Source of the DNA: Pseudovirgaria hyperparasitica
Lineage: Eukaryota
Assembly (NCBI GenBank): GCA_010093815.1
Contig: ML996577.1
Reading direction: 5' to 3' (one strand)
Length of the DNA stretch: 64,000 bases
The notes beneath the pieces are model-generated. The model was not told where the DNA came from and searched no databases. It saw only the letters and a list, made by a program, of their open reading frames with translations. A program made the position numbers and the translations under genes. Below are positions 480-31,560 of this stretch, one piece after another. The first letter of the stretch is position 1, and every line of letters starts with the position of its first letter.

Positions 480-3400
480 AATACTCGTCGGTCTATACCT
501 GGGTTTGCTCTACAGGTACTTGCTGGTGGACCCACAGTACCAAATAGAGGTCTTCATTTACGACACTCCTGCTGCACGACAGCTGCTTTTGAACTTGATG
601 AGACTCGGCGTCGTACCTTAGACTGTTGATGGCTCGTCTACATTTGTGCTGTAAGTGGCATCAATACAGTACCCTAGATGGGGCTTAACGATCGACTCTT
701 GCACAACTACTAACTTCAAGCAGCTGATGACCTTGCACGCACTTGGTGTTTTATTATGGCATCAATCTCCACTTCCATTTTTCAGACAGGTATGTTTATC
801 TCTCCCTTGGTTCACGAGCCTAAGATTATGATGATATATTCATACACTTCATCTTCTTGAATCTCCATGATAACACAATTCACTGATTTCCAATCTCCCT
901 TTGCTTCTCTAAACACATCTCAGAACATTACATTTGACTGACTTGCCTCTTACAGAGTTTCATGATACCTCCCGTCTCGATACTAGCATCTTGCATGGTA
1001 TCACAGGCGATGTCGTGTAGGCTCTTCCTCTCAGTACACCTGCGTAGCCGGTCTTGAATGGTAATGGTATCTTGAGAAGTAGCAGAGTAGCCAAGTAAGT
1101 TTCCTCTTTCCTCTCCCGATATACTGAAACATCAGTATCTTCAGTGACATGTTTACTTGGTCTTGCTCGGACAAGCTACAGGATACAGGATATCACCTCT
1201 CATCAAGCGAGCATCTGCTAATTCGACGCACAGTAATATTACAAAGTCCTATATATCGGCAGCTCATGCCATGGTCTTCTCTACTTTCATGTGCTCAATC
1301 ACAACATTTGGCACACCAACCCTAGAGGGGCTTGGCTTTCAATGCTTTGACCTGCGAGGTGTGTGCCTAGAAAGAATAGACGCACAAGTTTACACTTCCG
1401 TGCTATCTCAAGGCAATGATAGTGCGGTCTTTCTATGCGAACAAATTATTGAATGCAGACATAGGTTCAGATCAAGACAGATTGAAGAGATTTCATCGCT
1501 AAGTCCATCGATTTTATCTGCATTACTCTCACTGACCACCATTCCCAGATGCTCAATCAAGACTATGTTCGTCAAATCTGTCATAAGATATGGACAGATC
1601 AGCTGAGTTGTTTCCTAGCCTCGCTTTCACACACCTCGCTAACTATTCCCATGAATTTCATCCTTCCATTTAGCAGATGCAATTGCATCTTGACTCTCTG
1701 TACCTTGGCTTCTTTGTCGTGTCGTGACTAGCTAAGTATCGTATCCCTCATTCTTGAACTTTTACTGACATTGCCGCATCAACATACTTTAGATTTAGAT
1801 GACTGAGTATGACTTTAGTCTGCCTCGCCTGGCTCAAGACTTTGGGGTTAGCTGAATTATAGCTACACTCTAGTGACAAAGAGCAAGATCATCGTAGCTA
1901 GTCTGCGATGCAATGGAGACTCCTTCCGGTCATCAATCCTAGAACTTGGTAGCTAATACATTGCATACATCGCAGTGGACTTCCTCAATATTCGGTCTTT
2001 GGTCCTACCGAAGCAACCAGAGCTAAGTACCTCTTAACACTCCTCCGTCTCATCGCTAACTTGGCGTTGCACTAAAGCTATCGGAAGAGCTTGAATCGGG
2101 CACACTGCCGCTGAGTCCCCGCCTGATTCTTCCCATATTTTGCAAGAGCTGACAAGGACTAGAGCAAGCTACTCCTCCTCATCCTCCTCCTCCTCCTTCT
2201 CCTTTCCTATCTACAAAATATCAACAGTCACCGCTCTCGTCTACCACTTATTACAACGACTACGCGGTTGGGGATTTATGATATATCACGCTACGTCCTT
2301 CTCCTTCAATGATAATACTTGTTGCTAACTTTCATCTGCAAGGCATTTTACAAGACTATTCTTTCGGAATCCGCACCATCAAGACCGACATGTCTTCTCA
2401 AGCTACGTCAATCTTCTTTTATTTCTGCGCTCCTTGCTAACTTCAACTGTCAAATGATTATTCAACTTCCAGTTTTACTTTATCGCCTAGGTTGCTGAGG
2501 ACAAACTCGTGTCATAGTTTCTTCCTCTCACCAAAGGCTAGATCAATTGCGAGTGTGATCTGACACCTCCGTGCGACCTCAAAAGGCATCAGATCGCCAA
2601 TCTTAAGGATCTGGTGCCTTGATTTGTTCTGCTTACGCATACATGCCAGCATCTAATGATCTCTAGCAATGACCGTTGCTTCTCAAAGCTCGACTATTCG
2701 GTAAGTCTTCCACACACAAACAATGAGCGTCTACTAATAATGTTTTAGATCACCCATCCATAGTCTTCGAGCTATGGGTGGGGGGCTGTATAGGCGGGTT
2801 TGTCTCAAAGTCAATGAGGCAGGCCCATAGAGCTCAGCCCACATCAAAATGGCTGTCGGGCTGTTCAAGTCCCTCAGTCACTTGCTCATCTCCTGGGGTT
2901 TCTTCGCACGAATTAACCAGAGACACCGCTGTTCTGCGATCGTAACCGCCTTCGGGTCTGGTTCCTGTCGTGTATGAGCCGTGCATGTGCTTCCAAGAGG
3001 AGCATACATCCTAGGTAAGAACCTTCAATGTCATACAATCTCTCTTCGTTTCCACATGGATTCTCTCCAGGCTTCCACCCCTCCAGTCAACATGTACGTG
3101 TTTGCGCTCTCTTTTACCTTCTCACTTTAGTACCCTGCTTGGACCGAAATGGTTCAGGTGAAAGCCAATCATTCTGTGCTCCAAGATGGAGCTTGGGTCT
3201 GAGACCGTTTTGGAGGCAGCTAGGACTTTCCCTTGTGCCAATTAACCAGCGCGAGAATCATCGGTATCGAGATTGCGAAGATACAAGTAAGTCACACTCA
3301 TGTTCCCAACCCACTCTTTAACTCTCTGGCTCGCGAGCAGGCCTACCATCTGAATCAACCGCATCAGACTCTTAGAGCCTTGTTCCTTTCCGAGTAAGTT

Positions 3401-4400
3401 CTCTCATCTTCAGCCGCTCCTTTGTCCCCACTTCCAATGCCGAATATGGGTCACCGAATCGAGATCCTGGGATCTGGGCTTTTGGAAGCTGTTCCCACGG
3501 TTCAATGGTGCAGCTCCTCCTGGAGGACTCAATAGCTGCATCATGATAGGTTGGCCCGAGAGCAAGCAAGCATTTTGCACCCTGAGTAGAGGGGGACCTA
3601 GGTCCTTCTTGCGATCCTGGCGCATGCCGGTGTATCAGCTCAGTTTGCAGATTTTAGTCTTGCACACACCAAAACTGCGTTCTGCCTCTCGTAAGGGAAC
3701 TCTCAAAAGAGAATGGCTTGACGTGCGTGTCGGTGCGTACATATCGTCATCATATTAAACTGTTCCTGAATAGCCTGGCGGGTTTTACATGAAGCTTTGC
3801 AACAACATTTTTCCCCATCTCCTCATGAGCTCCTTGCTAACATTCTGCTTAGAATTCCAATCGGCAGTCATTTCATTCCACTTTTCACCATTACACATTC
3901 CCCAAACATCCCCATCACGGGCCGCCGAGTCAAGGATCTCGAGGAGTCGGGCTTTTGGAAGCTACTACTCGTATCCTATGGCGCAGTTCCTCTCCAGAGG
4001 CTCCATAGCTGCGTCATAAGAAGCGGCCCAAAAGCATGTGAGATTGGGTTCATTGAGTGGAGAGCAACCTAGTTTCTCTCGCGATCTTAGCGCAAGCTGA
4101 GTATCGGCTCAATGGACTTCAGTCTCGCGCACACGGACTACTCTGACGGACTATCACCGAGAGGACAATGGTAGTCTCGTTTGAGTTCGTGTGCACATGC
4201 GGTCTTCGAAGTCGGACTCTGAGCCTGTACGCGGTGAAGGCTACGAACCTGCTTGTCTCTCGAGATGGGCAGAGCCAAGTCAGAGACGCATGGTGGTGCT
4301 GGTGGTCGACTTGGGTCAATTGAGTGCAGGCCGTCGATAATCTCGCTCCCGAATCATATGATAGCTGTTGCTTCATGAACATGCTAACATTTCATCTCAG
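480..4400 (+). ncRNA. Candidate spliced, highly structured long non-coding RNA (boundaries approximate)
   Basis: No recognisable protein ORF. Plus-strand intron-like segments at 1095-1135, 2701-2748, 3015-3070 and 3287-3340. Many stems whose non-WC positions are G-U on the + strand (2583-2595/2608-2620; 2796-2807/2815-2826; 2093-2101/2121-2129). cUUCGg loop at 2950-2955 and GCAA tetraloop at 4092-4095. Confidence 0.45.
3448..4200 (+). repeat. Two diverged direct copies (3448-3741 and 3919-4200, offset ~470 bp) of a structured module
   Basis: Shared colinear anchors GGGCTTTTGGAAGCT, ATGGYGCAGYTCCTC, ATAGCTGCRTCAT, GGCCCRARAGCA, TGAGT..ACCTAG..GCGATC..GTATCRGCTCA and GCACAC in both copies. Confidence 0.85.
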
Positions 4401-4880
4401 ATCTAGCGCCGTTCCGATCTTAACCTCTGGACTCTGAGAAGTATACATTTCTCCTAAGCCGCTGACACCACACCAGACCTCCTCAAGGCACTTGCCAGAT
4501 CTCCGGACCCATCCCAAGGTATGTTTCATCTCCATATCTTCCTGTCACACTTTCACCTCCCGATACCAATCCCCCTGGGTCGACTCAGCACGCTTTGCGA
4601 GTTGAGTGAGTGGATAGAGCTCGTCCTCGGGCAAACCAATGCTCTTTCCAACACTACCGTCCCTAGATTAAACCTGCAGCAATTGAGTATCCGACCTGCA
4701 TCCAATGGTTGGTTGCGTGCAATTCCTGGTCTGCAGACAACACATCTTTCATACCAGACTGCCTCAAGAATTCGATTTTTCTTTGGACGTCTCAGCTGAC
4801 AGTCGACGCAGAGTCGAATGTCGTATGAGTTACAGTCATTGTGCTCACGATCCTGGAAACCCGATGCCTTCACGGGATCA

Positions 4881-5622
4881 ATCCAGCTACGTTGCCTCTA
4901 TTTACACTACTCTCAAGTACCTTACTGACCTAAAATCGCTAGCTACAAACCTCGCAATACCCCCGCCGAAGTTGAGCGCGAGTAGGCACTCTGCTGTCAA
5001 AACAATCCCGCTACGTCGACTCTATCCCTGCTGTTCTTGAATGCTTTGCTGATCTCCAAACACTAGTCACATATCTCGAAACGCTCAGTCCAAACTGAGT
5101 GTCAGCCACTCCTCCGATACCTTAGCAGTGTATCATCTGATCCATCCAGCTACGTTATCTCCTATGTTTACCTGAACACCTCACTGACCACAATCATTAG
5201 CGACGTATTTGGAAGCTCTCAGAACCAGTTGACAGAGAGTGGTCCATTCAACATCGCTTCTGGCTCATCCATTGGACCCATCCAGCTACGTTAACTCCTA
5301 TGATTACCTGAACCACTCACTGACCACAACCATTAGCGACGTATTTGGAAGCTCTCAGAACCAATTGACAGCGAGTGGTCCATCCAACACCGCTTCTGGC
5401 TCATCCATTGAACCCATCCAGCTACGTTATTTTCTATAATTACCTGAACACCTCACTGACCACAATCCATAGCTACGTATTTGGAAGCTCTCAGAACCAA
5501 TTGAGCGCGAGCAAGTCATCAAAGACAGCACCGCTTCCGGCTTCTTCCAACAATTCCACCCAGCTACGCTATCTCCGCCCCAACTATAGTATACAAACCT
5601 CACTAACTCATCATCCTCACAG
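4881..5622 (+). repeat. Tandem ~136-bp repeat; ~3 well-conserved copies (5142-5500) plus degenerate flanking copies
   Basis: CCATCCAGCTACGTT recurs at 136-bp spacing (~5143, 5278, 5414). Degenerate GCTACG units at ~4885, ~5010 and ~5563. Each is followed by CTGAC/CTGAT/CTAAC and a YAG. Confidence 0.85.
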
Positions 5623-7051
5623 TCACCTCAACCTGCTCGAAACCCTCCGGCTCACCTCACCGGACGCGCGCTGAGCACATCCAGCTTCCTTTCCTGCACA
5701 CACCCCCAATCACGAAACCTTGCTAACACCCAAACACCAGGACCGTCCTTCTCGATCCCAATCGACCGCACGACAGCGGGACCCCCTCACAGCAAAGCGT
5801 AAGTCTCCTCCACCCCGAACTCTCTCTCCCTCTTTCCCACATCGCACCACAAGTCCATCTGCGCGAACGGCACCGTCAACGGATGTTAGCTGTCCAGCTT
5901 CTCGTCTGGAAGACAAGCCAAGAGCAATGCCTCCACTCGACCATCAACCATTGCGCACTCAATGCGAGATTCAATGAGTGGCTACATCCTTCCGTCGTGC
6001 TTCTTCCTCTTCACACACTGCAATACATATCCCACACACCCCTCCAATGCATACCATCGCGCTAACTGATCACAGCAACACCAGATCGCCCTGAAGCAAC
6101 GACGAATCCAGAGAGAAGAGCGCGCCTGACACACATCAAGGTAAGTAAATCTTGCACATTCATACCTTCCTTGTCCCTTCCTACACCTTCGGCACCGACA
6201 CCACCACACCGCCGGCACCGTCAACGGATACAGTACTATATGCTGCGATCTGTAAGATAAAGCCAAGAGCAATGCACCTGTCTTCGAGTGTTCGCTCTCT
6301 CAAGACTATGAGAGGGGATACAAAGATTGGGTTACATTCTTTTTTTTCTTTTGAGGTTTGAGGATGAATCATGGATGGAGTTGGTTTGAGGATGGGTCTG
6401 TTTAGAGCTGTAGTGGAAATGAATATATGTTGAATTCGACTCATTGATTGTGACAAGAATGGTGCCATGAATCTGTGCATATAAGGATGTGACTTCCATA
6501 ATTATTATGATTGTGAACGTGGGTATGACTGTGGATTTATTTCAAATTCGGCATGAGAGATTCGAATACGAATACGAGTGCCAAGGAACGAATTAGAGCA
6601 TGTCGATGTCGCTGAAGTCACGAATGAAGTCACGTGAGCGTAAAAAAAATGGAGGTTCTGTACACAAAGGTCTGTAATGTGAGTACGTAAGACCACATGA
6701 ATGTGTATTGGTAGTAGATGGAGATCAATCCAACCAGATCTACAGAATTGGGTTAGCTGACTGAGTCCTAAACAACCATATTACGCGCTTGCCATGTTTG
6801 TGAGATGGGTGCTGTGATGTGGGAATAACCCGGAACGCGTCTGACGGGGTGGAACTCGAGGGCTTACTGGAAGACAATCTCCGGCTTTCGCATGATAGAC
6901 CACGTATAGCTACGGTGGCGGCATCTCTTTGCGTCTCGCTTTCATACAAAATGCAAGACGCGCTTCCCATGTCCCTGAATTTGTTGACTGTGCGCAAATA
7001 TCATCCCATCACAATTACAAGGGTATCTTTTCAACGACTTGTCTAAGTCGC

Positions 7052-27649: not shown

Positions 27650-28963
27650 ATGGCTTCCCCTAACAGCTTGTCAATATATGAGGACGAGTCCTTCACAATC
27701 CACACGGCTCTTTTGTTCTCGTCTCCATACAGGATGTTTCTTCAAAACATATCCCTCGTCATATCGCGCACCTCCGGCTTGATTCTTAAAACATACTCCC
27801 GTGCCTCCGCTTCCGCTCCAGACCCTCTCCCCCCTTCCGACATCGACCTCACCCACCTAACAATTCTTCCCGGCCTGGTCGACGCCCACACTCACATCTT
27901 CCTGCATGCCTACTCCGAAGTCTCGGCCACTCATCAAATGCTCCACGAATCCCCGGTCGAGCGCATCCTCCGCGCCTCAAACCACGCACGCGCCGCGCTC
28001 GACGCCGGCTTCACCACATACCGCGACCTGGGCACCGAAGGCATGGCCACCGCCGACATCTCCCTCCGCGACGCTATCAACCGCGGCATCACACCGGGCC
28101 CCCGGCTCTTCATCGCTACAGATCCCATCACCACCTCATCTAGCTACACCATCGCAAACGAAAACCCAACCCTCCACGTCCCCCGCCTCGCCGACGAAGC
28201 AGACGGCACCTCCGCTCTTCGTGCCGCAGTCCGCCGCCGCCTAGGCGCAGGCGCAGACATCATCAAGATCTACGCTGACCAAGAATCGCGCGCCGGCCGC
28301 TATCCAGAGCCTTCATTTCCCGGCGCCCTGCCCATGCGCTTCCCCCCGCTTTGGGGCGATGTCCCGCAACACATCACGCTGTTCACTGCTGAAGAGATGG
28401 CCGCCGTGGTTGACGAAGCGCACGCCGCGCACTGCCCGGTGGCCGCGCATGCCAGCTCGCCTAAAGCGGTCATCCGCGCGGCGCGCGCGGGCGTCGATAC
28501 GATCGAACACGGACAGGAACCCAGCGCGGAGGCGATCTCCGCGATGAGAAAAGCCGGCTGTATCTTTGTGCCGACGCTGAGCGTTATGGAGTATGAAGTG
28601 CCGGCGGACGTGCTGCCACGCATGTATGCGCATACGTATGCGGCGTGGAAAGACGGCGTGAAGATTGCGTGTGGCGGAGATACCGGACCGGTGCCCCATG
28701 GACAGAATGTGCGTGAATTGGAGCTTCTGCTTGGTGCCGGGGTGCCGCTTGCTGATGTGCTTGCTGCGGCGACGGTGCGCGGATGGGAGGCGTGTGGCGG
28801 CGAGTGGTGCGGACGGCGGTTTGGAGTGTTGCAGGAGGGATGGGCGGCGGATATTGTTGGACTCGAAGGGGATGTTAGAGAGGATGCGAGTGCGTTAAGG
28901 AGGGTGGCGTTTGTGATGAAGGATGGGGAGGTTTGGAAGAGGGATGGGAGGAGGGTTGGATGA
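27650..28963 (+). CDS. Metal-dependent amidohydrolase (Amidohydro_1, Xaa-Pro dipeptidase-like subgroup), intronless
   Basis: ILPGLVDAHTH (HxH), GFTTYRDLG, GADIIKIYAD, VAAHA, DTIEHG, GGDTG, G.L..GWAADIV. Confidence 0.92.
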   Translation: MASPNSLSIYEDESFTIHTALLFSSPYRMFLQNISLVISRTSGLILKTYSRASASAPDPLPPSDIDLTHLTILPGLVDAHTHIFLHAYSEVSATHQMLHESPVERILRASNHARAALDAGFTTYRDLGTEGMATADISLRDAINRGITPGPRLFIATDPITTSSSYTIANENPTLHVPRLADEADGTSALRAAVRRRLGAGADIIKIYADQESRAGRYPEPSFPGALPMRFPPLWGDVPQHITLFTAEEMAAVVDEAHAAHCPVAAHASSPKAVIRAARAGVDTIEHGQEPSAEAISAMRKAGCIFVPTLSVMEYEVPADVLPRMYAHTYAAWKDGVKIACGGDTGPVPHGQNVRELELLLGAGVPLADVLAAATVRGWEACGGEWCGRRFGVLQEGWAADIVGLEGDVREDASALRRVAFVMKDGEVWKRDGRRVG

Positions 28964-29085
28964 GGAGCGGCGAAGGGTGATGAGACAATACTATATTATA
29001 CTGGCATGTATATATCCCTGCCTACATAACAAAGCTTTTTGCTAATACACTTCTCCTCTCTCTTCCCGCCCATACAGCTAAACTC

Positions 29086-31560
29086 TTACATAGGCAACAC
29101 CCGCATCCGCTGACTATACTCAATATCCTTCGTCCGCTCCTCCAACACGCCGGCATAGAATCCCTGTCCCAAGACATGAATGCGCTTCCGATCAATCTTC
29201 TTACTCGCCGTGCGCGGCACCCAACTCATCAGCACCCACGTCGTCGGCACCATATATCTCGGCAACGCCGCCGCAATCCCGCGCTGCATCTCCTCGACTT
29301 TCGCTCGCACGCCGGCATCCTCCAATGCATCCGCTAACAGCGGCGCAGCACGCGGCACCGGTGCGCAGCTTGCTGGATGTGCGTCGAGATACAAGAACGC
29401 CGTCAGTGAGGGGTCGGCCTTGCCGTTGATGATGCCGAGCAAATCAACCACAACGGCATCCGCCGCTCCGAGAAATTGGCGCGCTTGGTGTTCAACTTCG
29501 AGCGCGTCGACGCGGCAGCCGTCGATTTTAAGTATCGTGTCTTTGCGACCGAGATATGTGATGCGGCCGTCAGCGGCGAGGCGGCCGAGGTCGCCGCTGC
29601 GGTACATGCGGGCGGGAGCGCGGTGCGGGTGAATGTCGCGCCGCCACGCTGGAACGAGTTTGAGGAAGCCCGCTTCAGAGCGGTGGAGAGCGGTGGTGTC
29701 GATGTAGCCGCGGGAGAGATGCGGGCCTTCGATGATAAGTTCTCCAACAGCGCCGATGGGGAGGAGGGATTCCGGAGAGGCCGGGTCGACGAGCCAGATT
29801 GCGCCGCAGGAGGGCCGGCCGATGACGGCGCCGGTGTTGGGGGCAATTGCGTCGTTGTAGGCGCAGCAGATGGCGACTTCGCCCATGCCGTACTGGTTGA
29901 CGAGATGGGTGTCGTGCGAGGCCCATTTGCGGACGAGGTCTTTGGGGAGCGGCTCGCCGCCGACGCACATGAGTTTGAGGCCGGGCACGTCGGAGGGGTT
30001 CAGGCGGATGGCGACGGTCGGGGTGAGGAAGATTGTGTTAGCGTCGAGGATGCGGATTTGACTGGCGAGGTCTTCGACGGTGCGCATCGGCGCCGGGACG
30101 CAGGCGGTGCCGCCGATGATAAGAGGGACAAGAAACTCAAGATTGGAGATGTCAAAGGCGTAGTCGTCGAATTGCAGGAAGCGCGTGTGGGCGCCGAGCT
30201 TGAGGTTACGGGAGTAGTCCTGGATGGCGGTAACGTATGAGGAATGGATCTGAACGATGCCTTTGGGAGTGCCGGTGCTGCCGGACGTGAAAAGCACGAG
30301 ACAGGCGTTGTCGGGCTGGATGTCCGGGCAGATTGGAAATTTGGTGGTAGCTGGTAAACTTCGAAGCCATTCAGGAGACAGTTCGACTACCGTAGGTACC
30401 GTGTTGCGGAATTGGTTTACAAAGTGCGAGTCGGTGAGAAGGATCGAAGTCTTGGTGCGATTGATGACTGATTCGAGGTATATGGGAGGATTGCTCGCAT
30501 GGATGGAGATGTACGCCCCGCCAGCTCTCAATATAGCAAGTCGAGCAACAATAGCCCACGTCGACTTCTCGAAACAGCTAAGAACAAACGTCTCGGGACG
30601 GACACCAAGTTGAACAAGGTGAGAAGCAAGTCTCGAGGAAAGATCATCGAGCTCTCCGTATGTCATGTCTCCATCCCATGAACGAATTGCGATTTGGTCT
30701 GGTCGCTGTTTACATGTATCGACGATCAAGTCATGGAGACATTCGCGCTTGACAGGAGAAACATTGCTTGTGAACTTCTGGATGTGTTGTCGGTCCCAGG
30801 ACGGGCAAAGGTTGACGTTATGAATCAGAAGCGTCGCAGGAGCAGTCAGTATCTGGTTGAAGATATGCTGAAAAGTGCGTAGGACACTTGCGGCCATACC
30901 CTCGTCGGTGTGAGATAGCTTATAGTCGAGCTGAACTCTCAAGCCATTGTCCGGCAACTTGGTTATGATGACACTCAGGTCAATCTGAACTTCGTTAGTT
31001 CAACTTACAGTTCCGTCTTGATTCAATCTCACCTCTTGGTGCGCAAATCGTGTTGCTGTACCATTCCTGACCTCCTCTTCGCCTACATTGAAAGAGATGG
31101 CTGTATTGGATTTATGCTGATCTGTGTCTGCTTCGACAAGAGTGATCTCAAAGCCAGCTGGACCAGTCGTCGTAAGGGACGACTGATGAGTTTGTTGAAG
31201 CCTCTGTATGAAGGACCGCACAGGTTCGCTGCGATCTAGTTTCATGACATACAAAGTTGCGAAGGTGCCAGCATCATGCTTGTCTGCAGCGTCGGCACTG
31301 GCACCAGACGGGCCACTGTAACCAAAACAAAGCACATCAGCAACAATGAAGCATTGTAATGTCAAAGCCCAGGCCGCCTGGATTGTTGCTGCTATAGCAC
31401 GACTCGTGACATCTGTTGCTATTGAGTCTCCAGCACTTATCAATTCAGATTCGATCCATCTCCTTCCCTCTGCTGCCTCATCCGTGCTGGACGAAGGAAA
31501 CAGACAAGTCGACCGATCGTGTCGACTGGAAGAATGGTCCGTGTCGATAGGGTTTGCCAT
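29086..31560 (-). CDS. NRPS-like stand-alone adenylation enzyme (partial condensation-like N-terminus + A domain, no thiolation domain), ~808 aa, intron 30985-31032
   Basis: TYGELD (A1), LAILRAGGAY (A2), FTSGSTGTPKG (A3), FDIS (A4), GELIIEGPHLSRGY (A6), YRSGDL (A7), KKIDRK (A10). Stop ~33 aa after A10 with no GGxS carrier motif; IQAAWALTL in the N-terminal part. Confidence 0.9.

Follow-up and report, generated by a model that had tools for sequence, protein, structure and literature searches.

In box H/ACA snoRNAs, the top of the pocket lies 14–16 nt upstream of the H or ACA box, and the ACA stands directly past the 3′ hairpin, 3 nt from the mature 3′ end. The H box ANANNA, the ACA box and the conserved pocket-to-box distances are set out for H/ACA RNAs by Gao, Jones and Rivas 2021 (PMC8216456), a source which covers H/ACA RNAs of Pezizomycotina including intron-hosted ones. 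Yeast H/ACA RNAs average about 200 nt in length, and some have additional hairpins or a 5′ domain built of two stems, for instance snR30/U17, an essential and non-modifying H/ACA snoRNA whose 5′ domain is devoid of a normal pocket; human U17 carries two stems ahead of the H box, and animal U17 RNAs measure 205–221 nt (PMC7601244). Furthermore, a conserved cluster of C/D snoRNAs has been described in fungi as a host of multiple snoRNAs (PMC5824354).

The locus described here lies in the window, that is, in the whole stretch of 64 kb of DNA that was analyzed, and contains two diverged tandem copies, A and B, of a structured non-coding RNA of the + strand selected for base-pairing. A and B are probably intron-hosted paralogues of the H/ACA snoRNA type, atypically branched, within a probable H/ACA host gene. 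With fungal box H/ACA snoRNAs they have in common the succession of a hairpin, an ANANNA hinge, a hairpin and an ACA tail, together with a box-to-loop spacing of 13–14 nt, a length of about 220 nt, a predicted intronic location, a clustered arrangement alongside further H/ACA-like units and compensatory changes in the stems. Unlike these snoRNAs, their domains are branched, the arm P2 fills the 5′ pocket side, the 3′ pocket of B is closed by weak pairs, and neither a target in the rRNA set searched nor a match to an Rfam model was found. The features of both copies are as follows.

3448–3671, + strand: copy A, a predicted RNA of the H/ACA type, running from its 5′ closing stem through ACA plus 3 nt (predicted ends)
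3448–3557, + strand: 5′ domain of A (P1, 3448–3453 with 3552–3557; P2, 3463–3503; P3, 3505–3544)
3559–3564, + strand: H box of A, AGAGCA, 1 nt past P1 (sequence and scanner)
about 3562/3566–3663, + strand: 3′ domain of A, with a three-way junction and two hairpins (folds)
3666–3668, + strand: ACA box of A, aligned to the ACA of B, 2 nt past the lower stem
3919–4136, + strand: copy B, predicted paralogue of A with the same architecture (fold and H/ACA scanner)
3919–4029, + strand: 5′ domain of B (closing stem, 3919–3925 with 4023–4029)
4031–4036, + strand: H box of B, AAAGCA, 1 nt past the closing stem (sequence and scanner)
4038–4128, + strand: 3′ domain of B (folds)
4131–4133, + strand: ACA box of B, 2 nt past the lower stem of the 3′ domain
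3477–3491 in A and 3950–3964 in B, + strand: invariant 15-mer GGGCUUUUGGAAGCU, forming the tip of P2 (alignments)

Extent, fold and pairing of the two copies

Copies A and B follow each other with a tandem period of about 471 nt. By blastn, they are 69% identical over 195 nt (3476–3669 against 3949–4134), and no third copy was detected in the 64-kb window. Global alignment with MAFFT gives an identity of 65% within 3448–3668 and of 40–41% in the aligned flanks. The likeness stops at CACAC, at 3669 in A and 4134 in B, and the conserved unit is therefore about 221–224 nt long, leaving 3670–3741 and 4135–4200 outside. A module length of ~280 nt, put forward by an earlier sequence-only reading of this DNA, is consequently too large; its start coordinates, 3448 and 3919, are those at which the conserved unit begins. 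The H/ACA scanner delimited A as 3448–3669/3671 and B as 3919–4136. A covariance model, R1, was built from the A/B pair and searched against the window, as that reading had advised: it scored 263.8 bits on A and 243.1 bits on B and matched nothing else. A pattern scan of metagenomes (14-mer, gap, 8-mer) retrieved 6 loci, none of them a homologue of A/B by blastn or covariance model; since only the pattern itself matches, these are chance matches.

Compared with dinucleotide shuffles, another of the checks proposed at the outset, the + strand folds of 3448–3741 and 3919–4200 have z-scores of −2.8 and −8.7, respectively, and those of the minus strand −0.9 and −4.1. The minus strand folds 21–29 kcal/mol more weakly and with poorer z-scores, which indicates that the RNA is read from the + strand. 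Folded independently (MFE), both copies adopt one common architecture consisting of the closing stem P1, the arms P2 and P3, a short hinge and a long 3′ helix, P4–P6, which leads up to a three-way junction from which the hairpins P7 and P8 branch off. MFE and centroid folds alike give two hairpin domains, a hinge and a short tail in A and in B, both domains being branched. The closing stem reads GGGUCA/UGGCCC in A and GGGCCGC/GCGGCCC in B, the next stem AUGGUGCAGC/GCUGCAUCAU in A and AUGGCGCAGUU/AGCUGCGUCAU in B, and a stem of the 3′ domain CUGAGU/GCUCAG in A and UUGAGU/GCUCAA in B; in A, the latter is accompanied by the lower stem GCAAG/CUUGC and by UUUGCA/UGCAGA (3574–3579 with 3646–3651). 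P2 comprises 14 base pairs in A and 17 in B. The stems beneath its invariant tip GGGCUUUUGGAAGCU differ in sequence between A and B and pair in both, and the most conserved element of the two copies is a hairpin tip rather than a pocket strand.

Most of these helices had been recognized in the sequence-only reading, and its closing stem, next stem, CUGAGU/GCUCAG and UUGAGU/GCUCAA stems and pair of hairpins atop the 3′ domain are all present in the folds. Other details held in part. The inner stems proposed as CCUCC/GGAGG in A and CCUCU/AGAGG in B are reduced to the invariant 4 bp CCUC/GAGG, the full 5-bp stems being impossible as loops of just 1–2 nt would remain, and the GNRA loop is found in B (GCAA) and not in A (GCAU). 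Likewise, the pairing of GCUUUUGG with CCGAGAGC in A or CCAAAAGC in B exists over 8 bp without going beyond chance: runs of this length turned up in 1214 of the 2000 shuffled versions of A, and a still longer one lies elsewhere in B. The apex-to-hinge pseudoknot was dropped on the ground that this pairing is no longer than expected by chance.

A plain MAFFT alignment of A and B brings 56 base pairs into register, over which 97.3% of the cells pair, compared with 34–44% for slid partners. Seven of these pairs are changed on both sides and still pair (0–1 when the partners are slid), and a further seven, altered on a single side, have all stayed standard pairs; among the three unpaired cells, two are due to a loop-length misregister in P3b. 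Neutral divergence was simulated in 10,000 runs by mutating A at random with the 72 observed differences (51 transitions): 38.4 ± 3.2 pairs are expected to be kept, B keeps 53 out of 56, and none of the simulations reaches this number. The alignment of A and B was also evaluated with alifold, as had been suggested, and gave a z-score of −7.1 by column shuffling (0 of 300 shuffles) with a structure conservation index of 0.68. The initial claim of two diverged copies which preserve base-pairing over sequence is confirmed by these 53 kept pairs and seven double changes at 65% identity. The covariation signal is far from chance, though, with two sequences, it stays below R-scape grade.

Boxes, pockets and family membership

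Each copy displays, in order, the 5′ domain, 1 nt, ANANNA, 1 nt, the 3′ domain, 2 nt and the ACA at which the likeness between A and B stops; a second ACA is present in A at 3664–3666. We put the chance of having ANANNA and ACA both in place at roughly 0.4%, a rough estimate and not a computed value, the motifs being short. The distance from the end of P3 to the H box is 14 nt in A and 13 nt in B, with the 5′ pocket strand carrying a hairpin arm, and the 7 × 7 internal loop of the 3′ domain of A ends 14 nt upstream of the ACA. This 13–14-nt spacing is close to the conserved pocket-to-box spacing of H/ACA RNAs as presented in PMC8216456, and the size of A and B is normal for the class in view of the yeast average of about 200 nt (PMC7601244).

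Three points are atypical for a guide, namely the branched domains, the filling of the 5′ pocket strand by P2 and the near-continuous 3′ helix of B. The hairpin arm P2, 41–45 nt long, fills the 5′ side of the 5′ “pocket” in A and B alike, and in A the junction strand 3545–3551 stands where the 3′ side of a pocket would be. The 3′ domain of B is an almost continuous helix in which five weak pairs close the counterpart of the loop of A. No canonical open pocket is seen in either copy, and this was counted against the H/ACA assignment.

A comparison with snR30/U17 is of interest as it is likewise an H/ACA RNA without a normal 5′ pocket, with an elaborated 5′ domain and of similar length. Neither of its near-invariant elements, m1 (AUAUUCCUA) and m2 (AAACCAU), is present in the two copies: with up to 2 mismatches allowed, m1 is matched nowhere in A or B, and the m2-like matches (1–2 mismatches) fall in the hinge or tail, outside the 3′ pocket. 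Membership of A and B in the snR30/U17 family was rejected because m1 and m2 are missing.

Concerning other known families, the search of Rfam 15 that had been recommended gave no match at the gathering cut-off across the whole window and, at E ≤ 10, only three low-scoring and unrelated matches, all of them below gathering. For A and B, the missing Rfam match is weak evidence of novelty, since the canonical-looking candidates snoC and snoD of the same locus (see below) are unmatched too. No Rfam match was obtained in this window search for snoC, snoD or the other candidates E and F either, and, if the H/ACA assignment is true, Rfam coverage is evidently thin for a filamentous-fungus-like genome, as all five to six candidates went unmatched. 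A full-text literature search with the invariant 15-mer and with the 16-mer of snoC/snoD, in DNA and RNA letters, returned no paper, the supplementary tables of PMC5824354 being outside its scope. From the initial proposal of a possibly undescribed multi-junction structured ncRNA, we retain a structured RNA of the + strand under selection for pairing and abandon the undescribed class, given the H/ACA layout of both copies. The exclusion of snRNAs, RNase P/MRP, SRP RNA, group I introns and small ribozymes on which that proposal was built was incomplete, as it left box H/ACA snoRNAs unconsidered. A new RNA class is unsupported for A and B, which probably belong to an ordinary one.

Host locus and neighbouring units

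With GTAAGT, CTAAC and YAG intron signals, the window resembles DNA of a filamentous-fungus-type eukaryote. GTAAGT/GTATGT and CTAAC…YAG signals are dense on the + strand from about 600 to 6300. The following elements were delineated there.

2485–2646, + strand: weaker candidate F, hairpin-AGAUCA-hairpin-ACA (scanner; no obvious intron around)
3394–3852, + strand: putative 459-nt intron around copy A (GTAAGT 3394, GCTAAC 3836, YAG ending 3852; consensus signals only)
4383–4400, + strand: next branch-point-like GCTAAC (4383) and YAG (ending 4400), downstream of copy B
4519–4811, + strand: putative intron around candidate E (GTATGT 4519, GCTGAC 4795, YAG ending 4811)
4577–4745, + strand: candidate unit E (branched 5′ hairpin from GGGUCG; H box AGAUUA 4665; 3′ hairpin CUGCAG…CUGCAG; ACA 4737/4740)
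5869–5989, + strand: candidate snoC (H box AGAGCA 5921; ACA 5984–5986 plus 3 nt; putative intron 5799–6075)
6214–6339, + strand: candidate snoD (H box AGAGCA 6266; ACA 6334–6336 plus 3 nt; GTAAGT at 6141 upstream)

Copy A starts 54 nt past the putative 5′ splice site and ends about 165 nt ahead of the branch point. Between 3853 and 3918 there is no consensus 5′ splice site from which a host intron of copy B could be delimited. All three frames of the putative exon 4401–4518, which is flanked on either side by a putative intron, are interrupted by stops. Judging by these signals, the host locus looks like an apparently non-coding, multi-intron one with several H/ACA-like units. It resembles multi-snoRNA host genes in that snoRNA-like units follow one another in a row on one strand, with splice signals between them and no long open frame. 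Unlike in the C/D cluster of PMC5824354, the units are here H/ACA-like, and the host transcript and its splicing are predicted from consensus signals alone.

A crude scan for hairpin-ANANNA-hairpin-ACA arrangements on both strands of the window (128 kb) yielded 16 distinct candidates, five of which, F, A, B, E and snoD, are on the + strand within 2485–6339; snoC is below the scanner thresholds and was spotted by eye. snoC and snoD appear as a small (~120-nt), canonical-looking pair of H/ACA paralogues and have in common GGCACCGUCAACGGAU and AAGCCAAGAGCAAUGC, 16-nt conserved strands which flank a variable upper stem, as well as AGAGCA and ACA plus 3 nt; in these predicted RNAs, such a pattern is what guide paralogues usually look like. 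The fold z-scores are −1.35 for E, slightly better than shuffles, −0.4 for snoC, no better than shuffles, and −2.9 for snoD. These neighbouring units are predictions only, a point weighed against the H/ACA assignment. The best site of snoC, U1282 of a foreign fungal 18S rRNA (4 + 8 bp), scores only at about the 95% level of shuffles. It was considered as the counterpart of yeast ψ1290, the snR83 site, whose position is taken from a table in PMC8307265, and was rejected since the UUUGACUCAA anchor leads to about yeast position 1286.

The same region contains a 136-nt tandem repeat at 5142–5511 on the + strand (2.7 copies, 91% match), with diverged older units from about 4876 and 5000. The repeat units show no structure (z about 0), and their length of 136 nt is no multiple of 3. 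Five exact matches to the 10-mer TTTGGAAGCT exist in the window, each on the + strand within this locus: one in the invariant tip of A, one in that of B and one in each of three 136-nt units. Upstream, a C/D-box-like element of 59 nt, AUGAUGA…AUGAUAA…CUGA, is found at 828–886 (+ strand) within a putative intron extending from 790 (GTATGT) to 955; as a C/D guide it was discarded, no complementarity above shuffles being found in the partial foreign rRNA set. At a larger scale, the G+C content peaks at 0.62 at 28001–30000, compared with about 0.50 elsewhere in the window.

Alternative readings, mode of action and targets

The assignment of A and B to H/ACA-type snoRNAs has to be weighed against other explanations of the same data. 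An undescribed class of structured ncRNA, in which ANANNA and ACA would be incidental and the branched domains, along with the invariant apical 15-mer, would carry the function, for instance as a scaffold to which proteins bind, would account for three-way junctions in both domains instead of the stem, pocket, stem arrangement, for a conservation that is highest at a hairpin tip, and for the lack of a target in the rRNA set searched and of an Rfam match. We regard this explanation as unlikely, considering that both boxes are at the expected offsets in A and B, that the likeness stops at the ACA, that the box-to-loop spacing is 13–14 nt and that further H/ACA-like units exist in the locus; moreover, snR30/U17 likewise possesses an elaborated 5′ domain and no 5′ pocket (PMC7601244). 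The structures could also act in cis within the introns and regulate the splicing or stability of the host with no stable RNA being released. Copy A lies inside a putative intron of 459 nt, and conserved intronic structures of unknown role have been reported in fungi (PMC8216456). Such a role nevertheless seems improbable for a host that is apparently non-coding (stops in all frames of 4401–4518 and no protein family above cut-off) and for a structure that is away from the splice sites (54 nt past the 5′ site, about 165 nt before the branch point), and two diverged box-bearing copies are easier to understand as trans-acting RNAs.

The tandem arrangement itself, with its period of about 471 nt, and the 10-mer TTTGGAAGCT shared with the nearby 136-nt tandem repeats could evoke what is left of a MITE/SINE-like mobile element, or else a segmental duplication that evolves neutrally and has an incidental fold. 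This we hold to be very improbable: only two copies are present in 64 kb by blastn and covariance model, about 38 of the 56 pairs would be kept under neutral divergence while B keeps 53, the flanks have drifted to background identity with the fold retained, and the strong bias of stability towards the + strand is unexpected for repeats acting at the DNA level. As to a duplicated protein-coding exon on either strand, stop-free frames of 134 aa (+), 100 aa (+) and 93 aa (−) do run over both copies. The differences between A and B nevertheless follow no 3-base period (22/29/21 over the codon positions, p = 0.25), indels of 1, 1, 1, 1, 2 and 4 nt separate the copies, B has two in-frame TAG codons at places where the minus frame of A is open, and Pfam gives no family above cut-off, the best E-value, 0.013, being under the curated score. 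With no codon periodicity, small indels and no Pfam family at cut-off, A and B are not protein-coding, and we give this last explanation practically no credit.

For H/ACA-type paralogues, the course of events would be the following. The host transcript, of the + strand, multi-intron and apparently non-coding, would be spliced, and each RNA would be trimmed from its intron as Cbf5/dyskerin, Nhp2, Nop10 and Gar1 bind each hairpin domain with its H or ACA box. The resulting particle would be at work in the nucleolus or nucleus, either as a pseudouridine guide via the strands of its internal loops or, modifying nothing, as an “orphan” H/ACA RNA. That A and B are transcribed, processed and bound by these proteins, and that they have a target at all, is at this stage inferred only. 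More tentatively, and with rather low confidence, A and B may be viewed as a lineage-specific “orphan” H/ACA-type RNA that has kept the H/ACA protein-binding frame and fulfils a job other than rRNA pseudouridylation via its branched domains and the invariant apical hairpin GGGCUUUUGGAAGCU, both paralogues being retained by selection for that job. An RNA of this sort would be comparable in kind to snR30/U17, and the H/ACA domain of vertebrate telomerase RNA provides a comparison case as well. The branched domains, the invariant tip and the missing target would matter only given a non-guide role. If the H/ACA assignment is true, its significance is at the level of annotation, with an unlisted pair of H/ACA snoRNAs and probably a whole H/ACA host gene; a clean signal of structure with covariation may then prove, on a check for the boxes, to be that of an ordinary snoRNA.

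Targets were searched in a set made up of fungal 18S, 5.8S and LSU 1–941 rRNA from another species (L022, L058) and of a plant rDNA repeat (L061), all taken from eukaryotic rDNA contigs which contaminate prokaryote assemblies. A full fungal LSU was found in none of 6 assemblies, and no eukaryotic rDNA was found in viral contigs. In this partial and foreign rRNA set, bipartite targets for A and B, sought with several definitions of the pocket, scored no higher than the medians or the 95% levels of shuffled guides, and neither the invariant 15-mer nor the conserved junction strand had an antisense match above shuffles. A site shared by A and B, U833 of the 18S rRNA, was rejected, as it lies in a stretch rich in U and G, includes numerous G-U pairs and differs in register between the two copies. 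The missing target could mean that the RNA is an orphan, that its target is in parts of the rRNA or in snRNAs beyond the set, or that the pocket definition is wrong. Apart from their use here, eukaryotic 18S rDNA was seen in at least 51 contigs deposited as parts of bacterial or archaeal assemblies (L007–L061). A Streptomyces assembly, for example, includes a contig with fungal rDNA (L022/L058), and a gut “Collinsella” MAG contains a plant-like rDNA repeat in complete form (L061); such eukaryotic rDNA contigs in prokaryote assemblies look like contamination.
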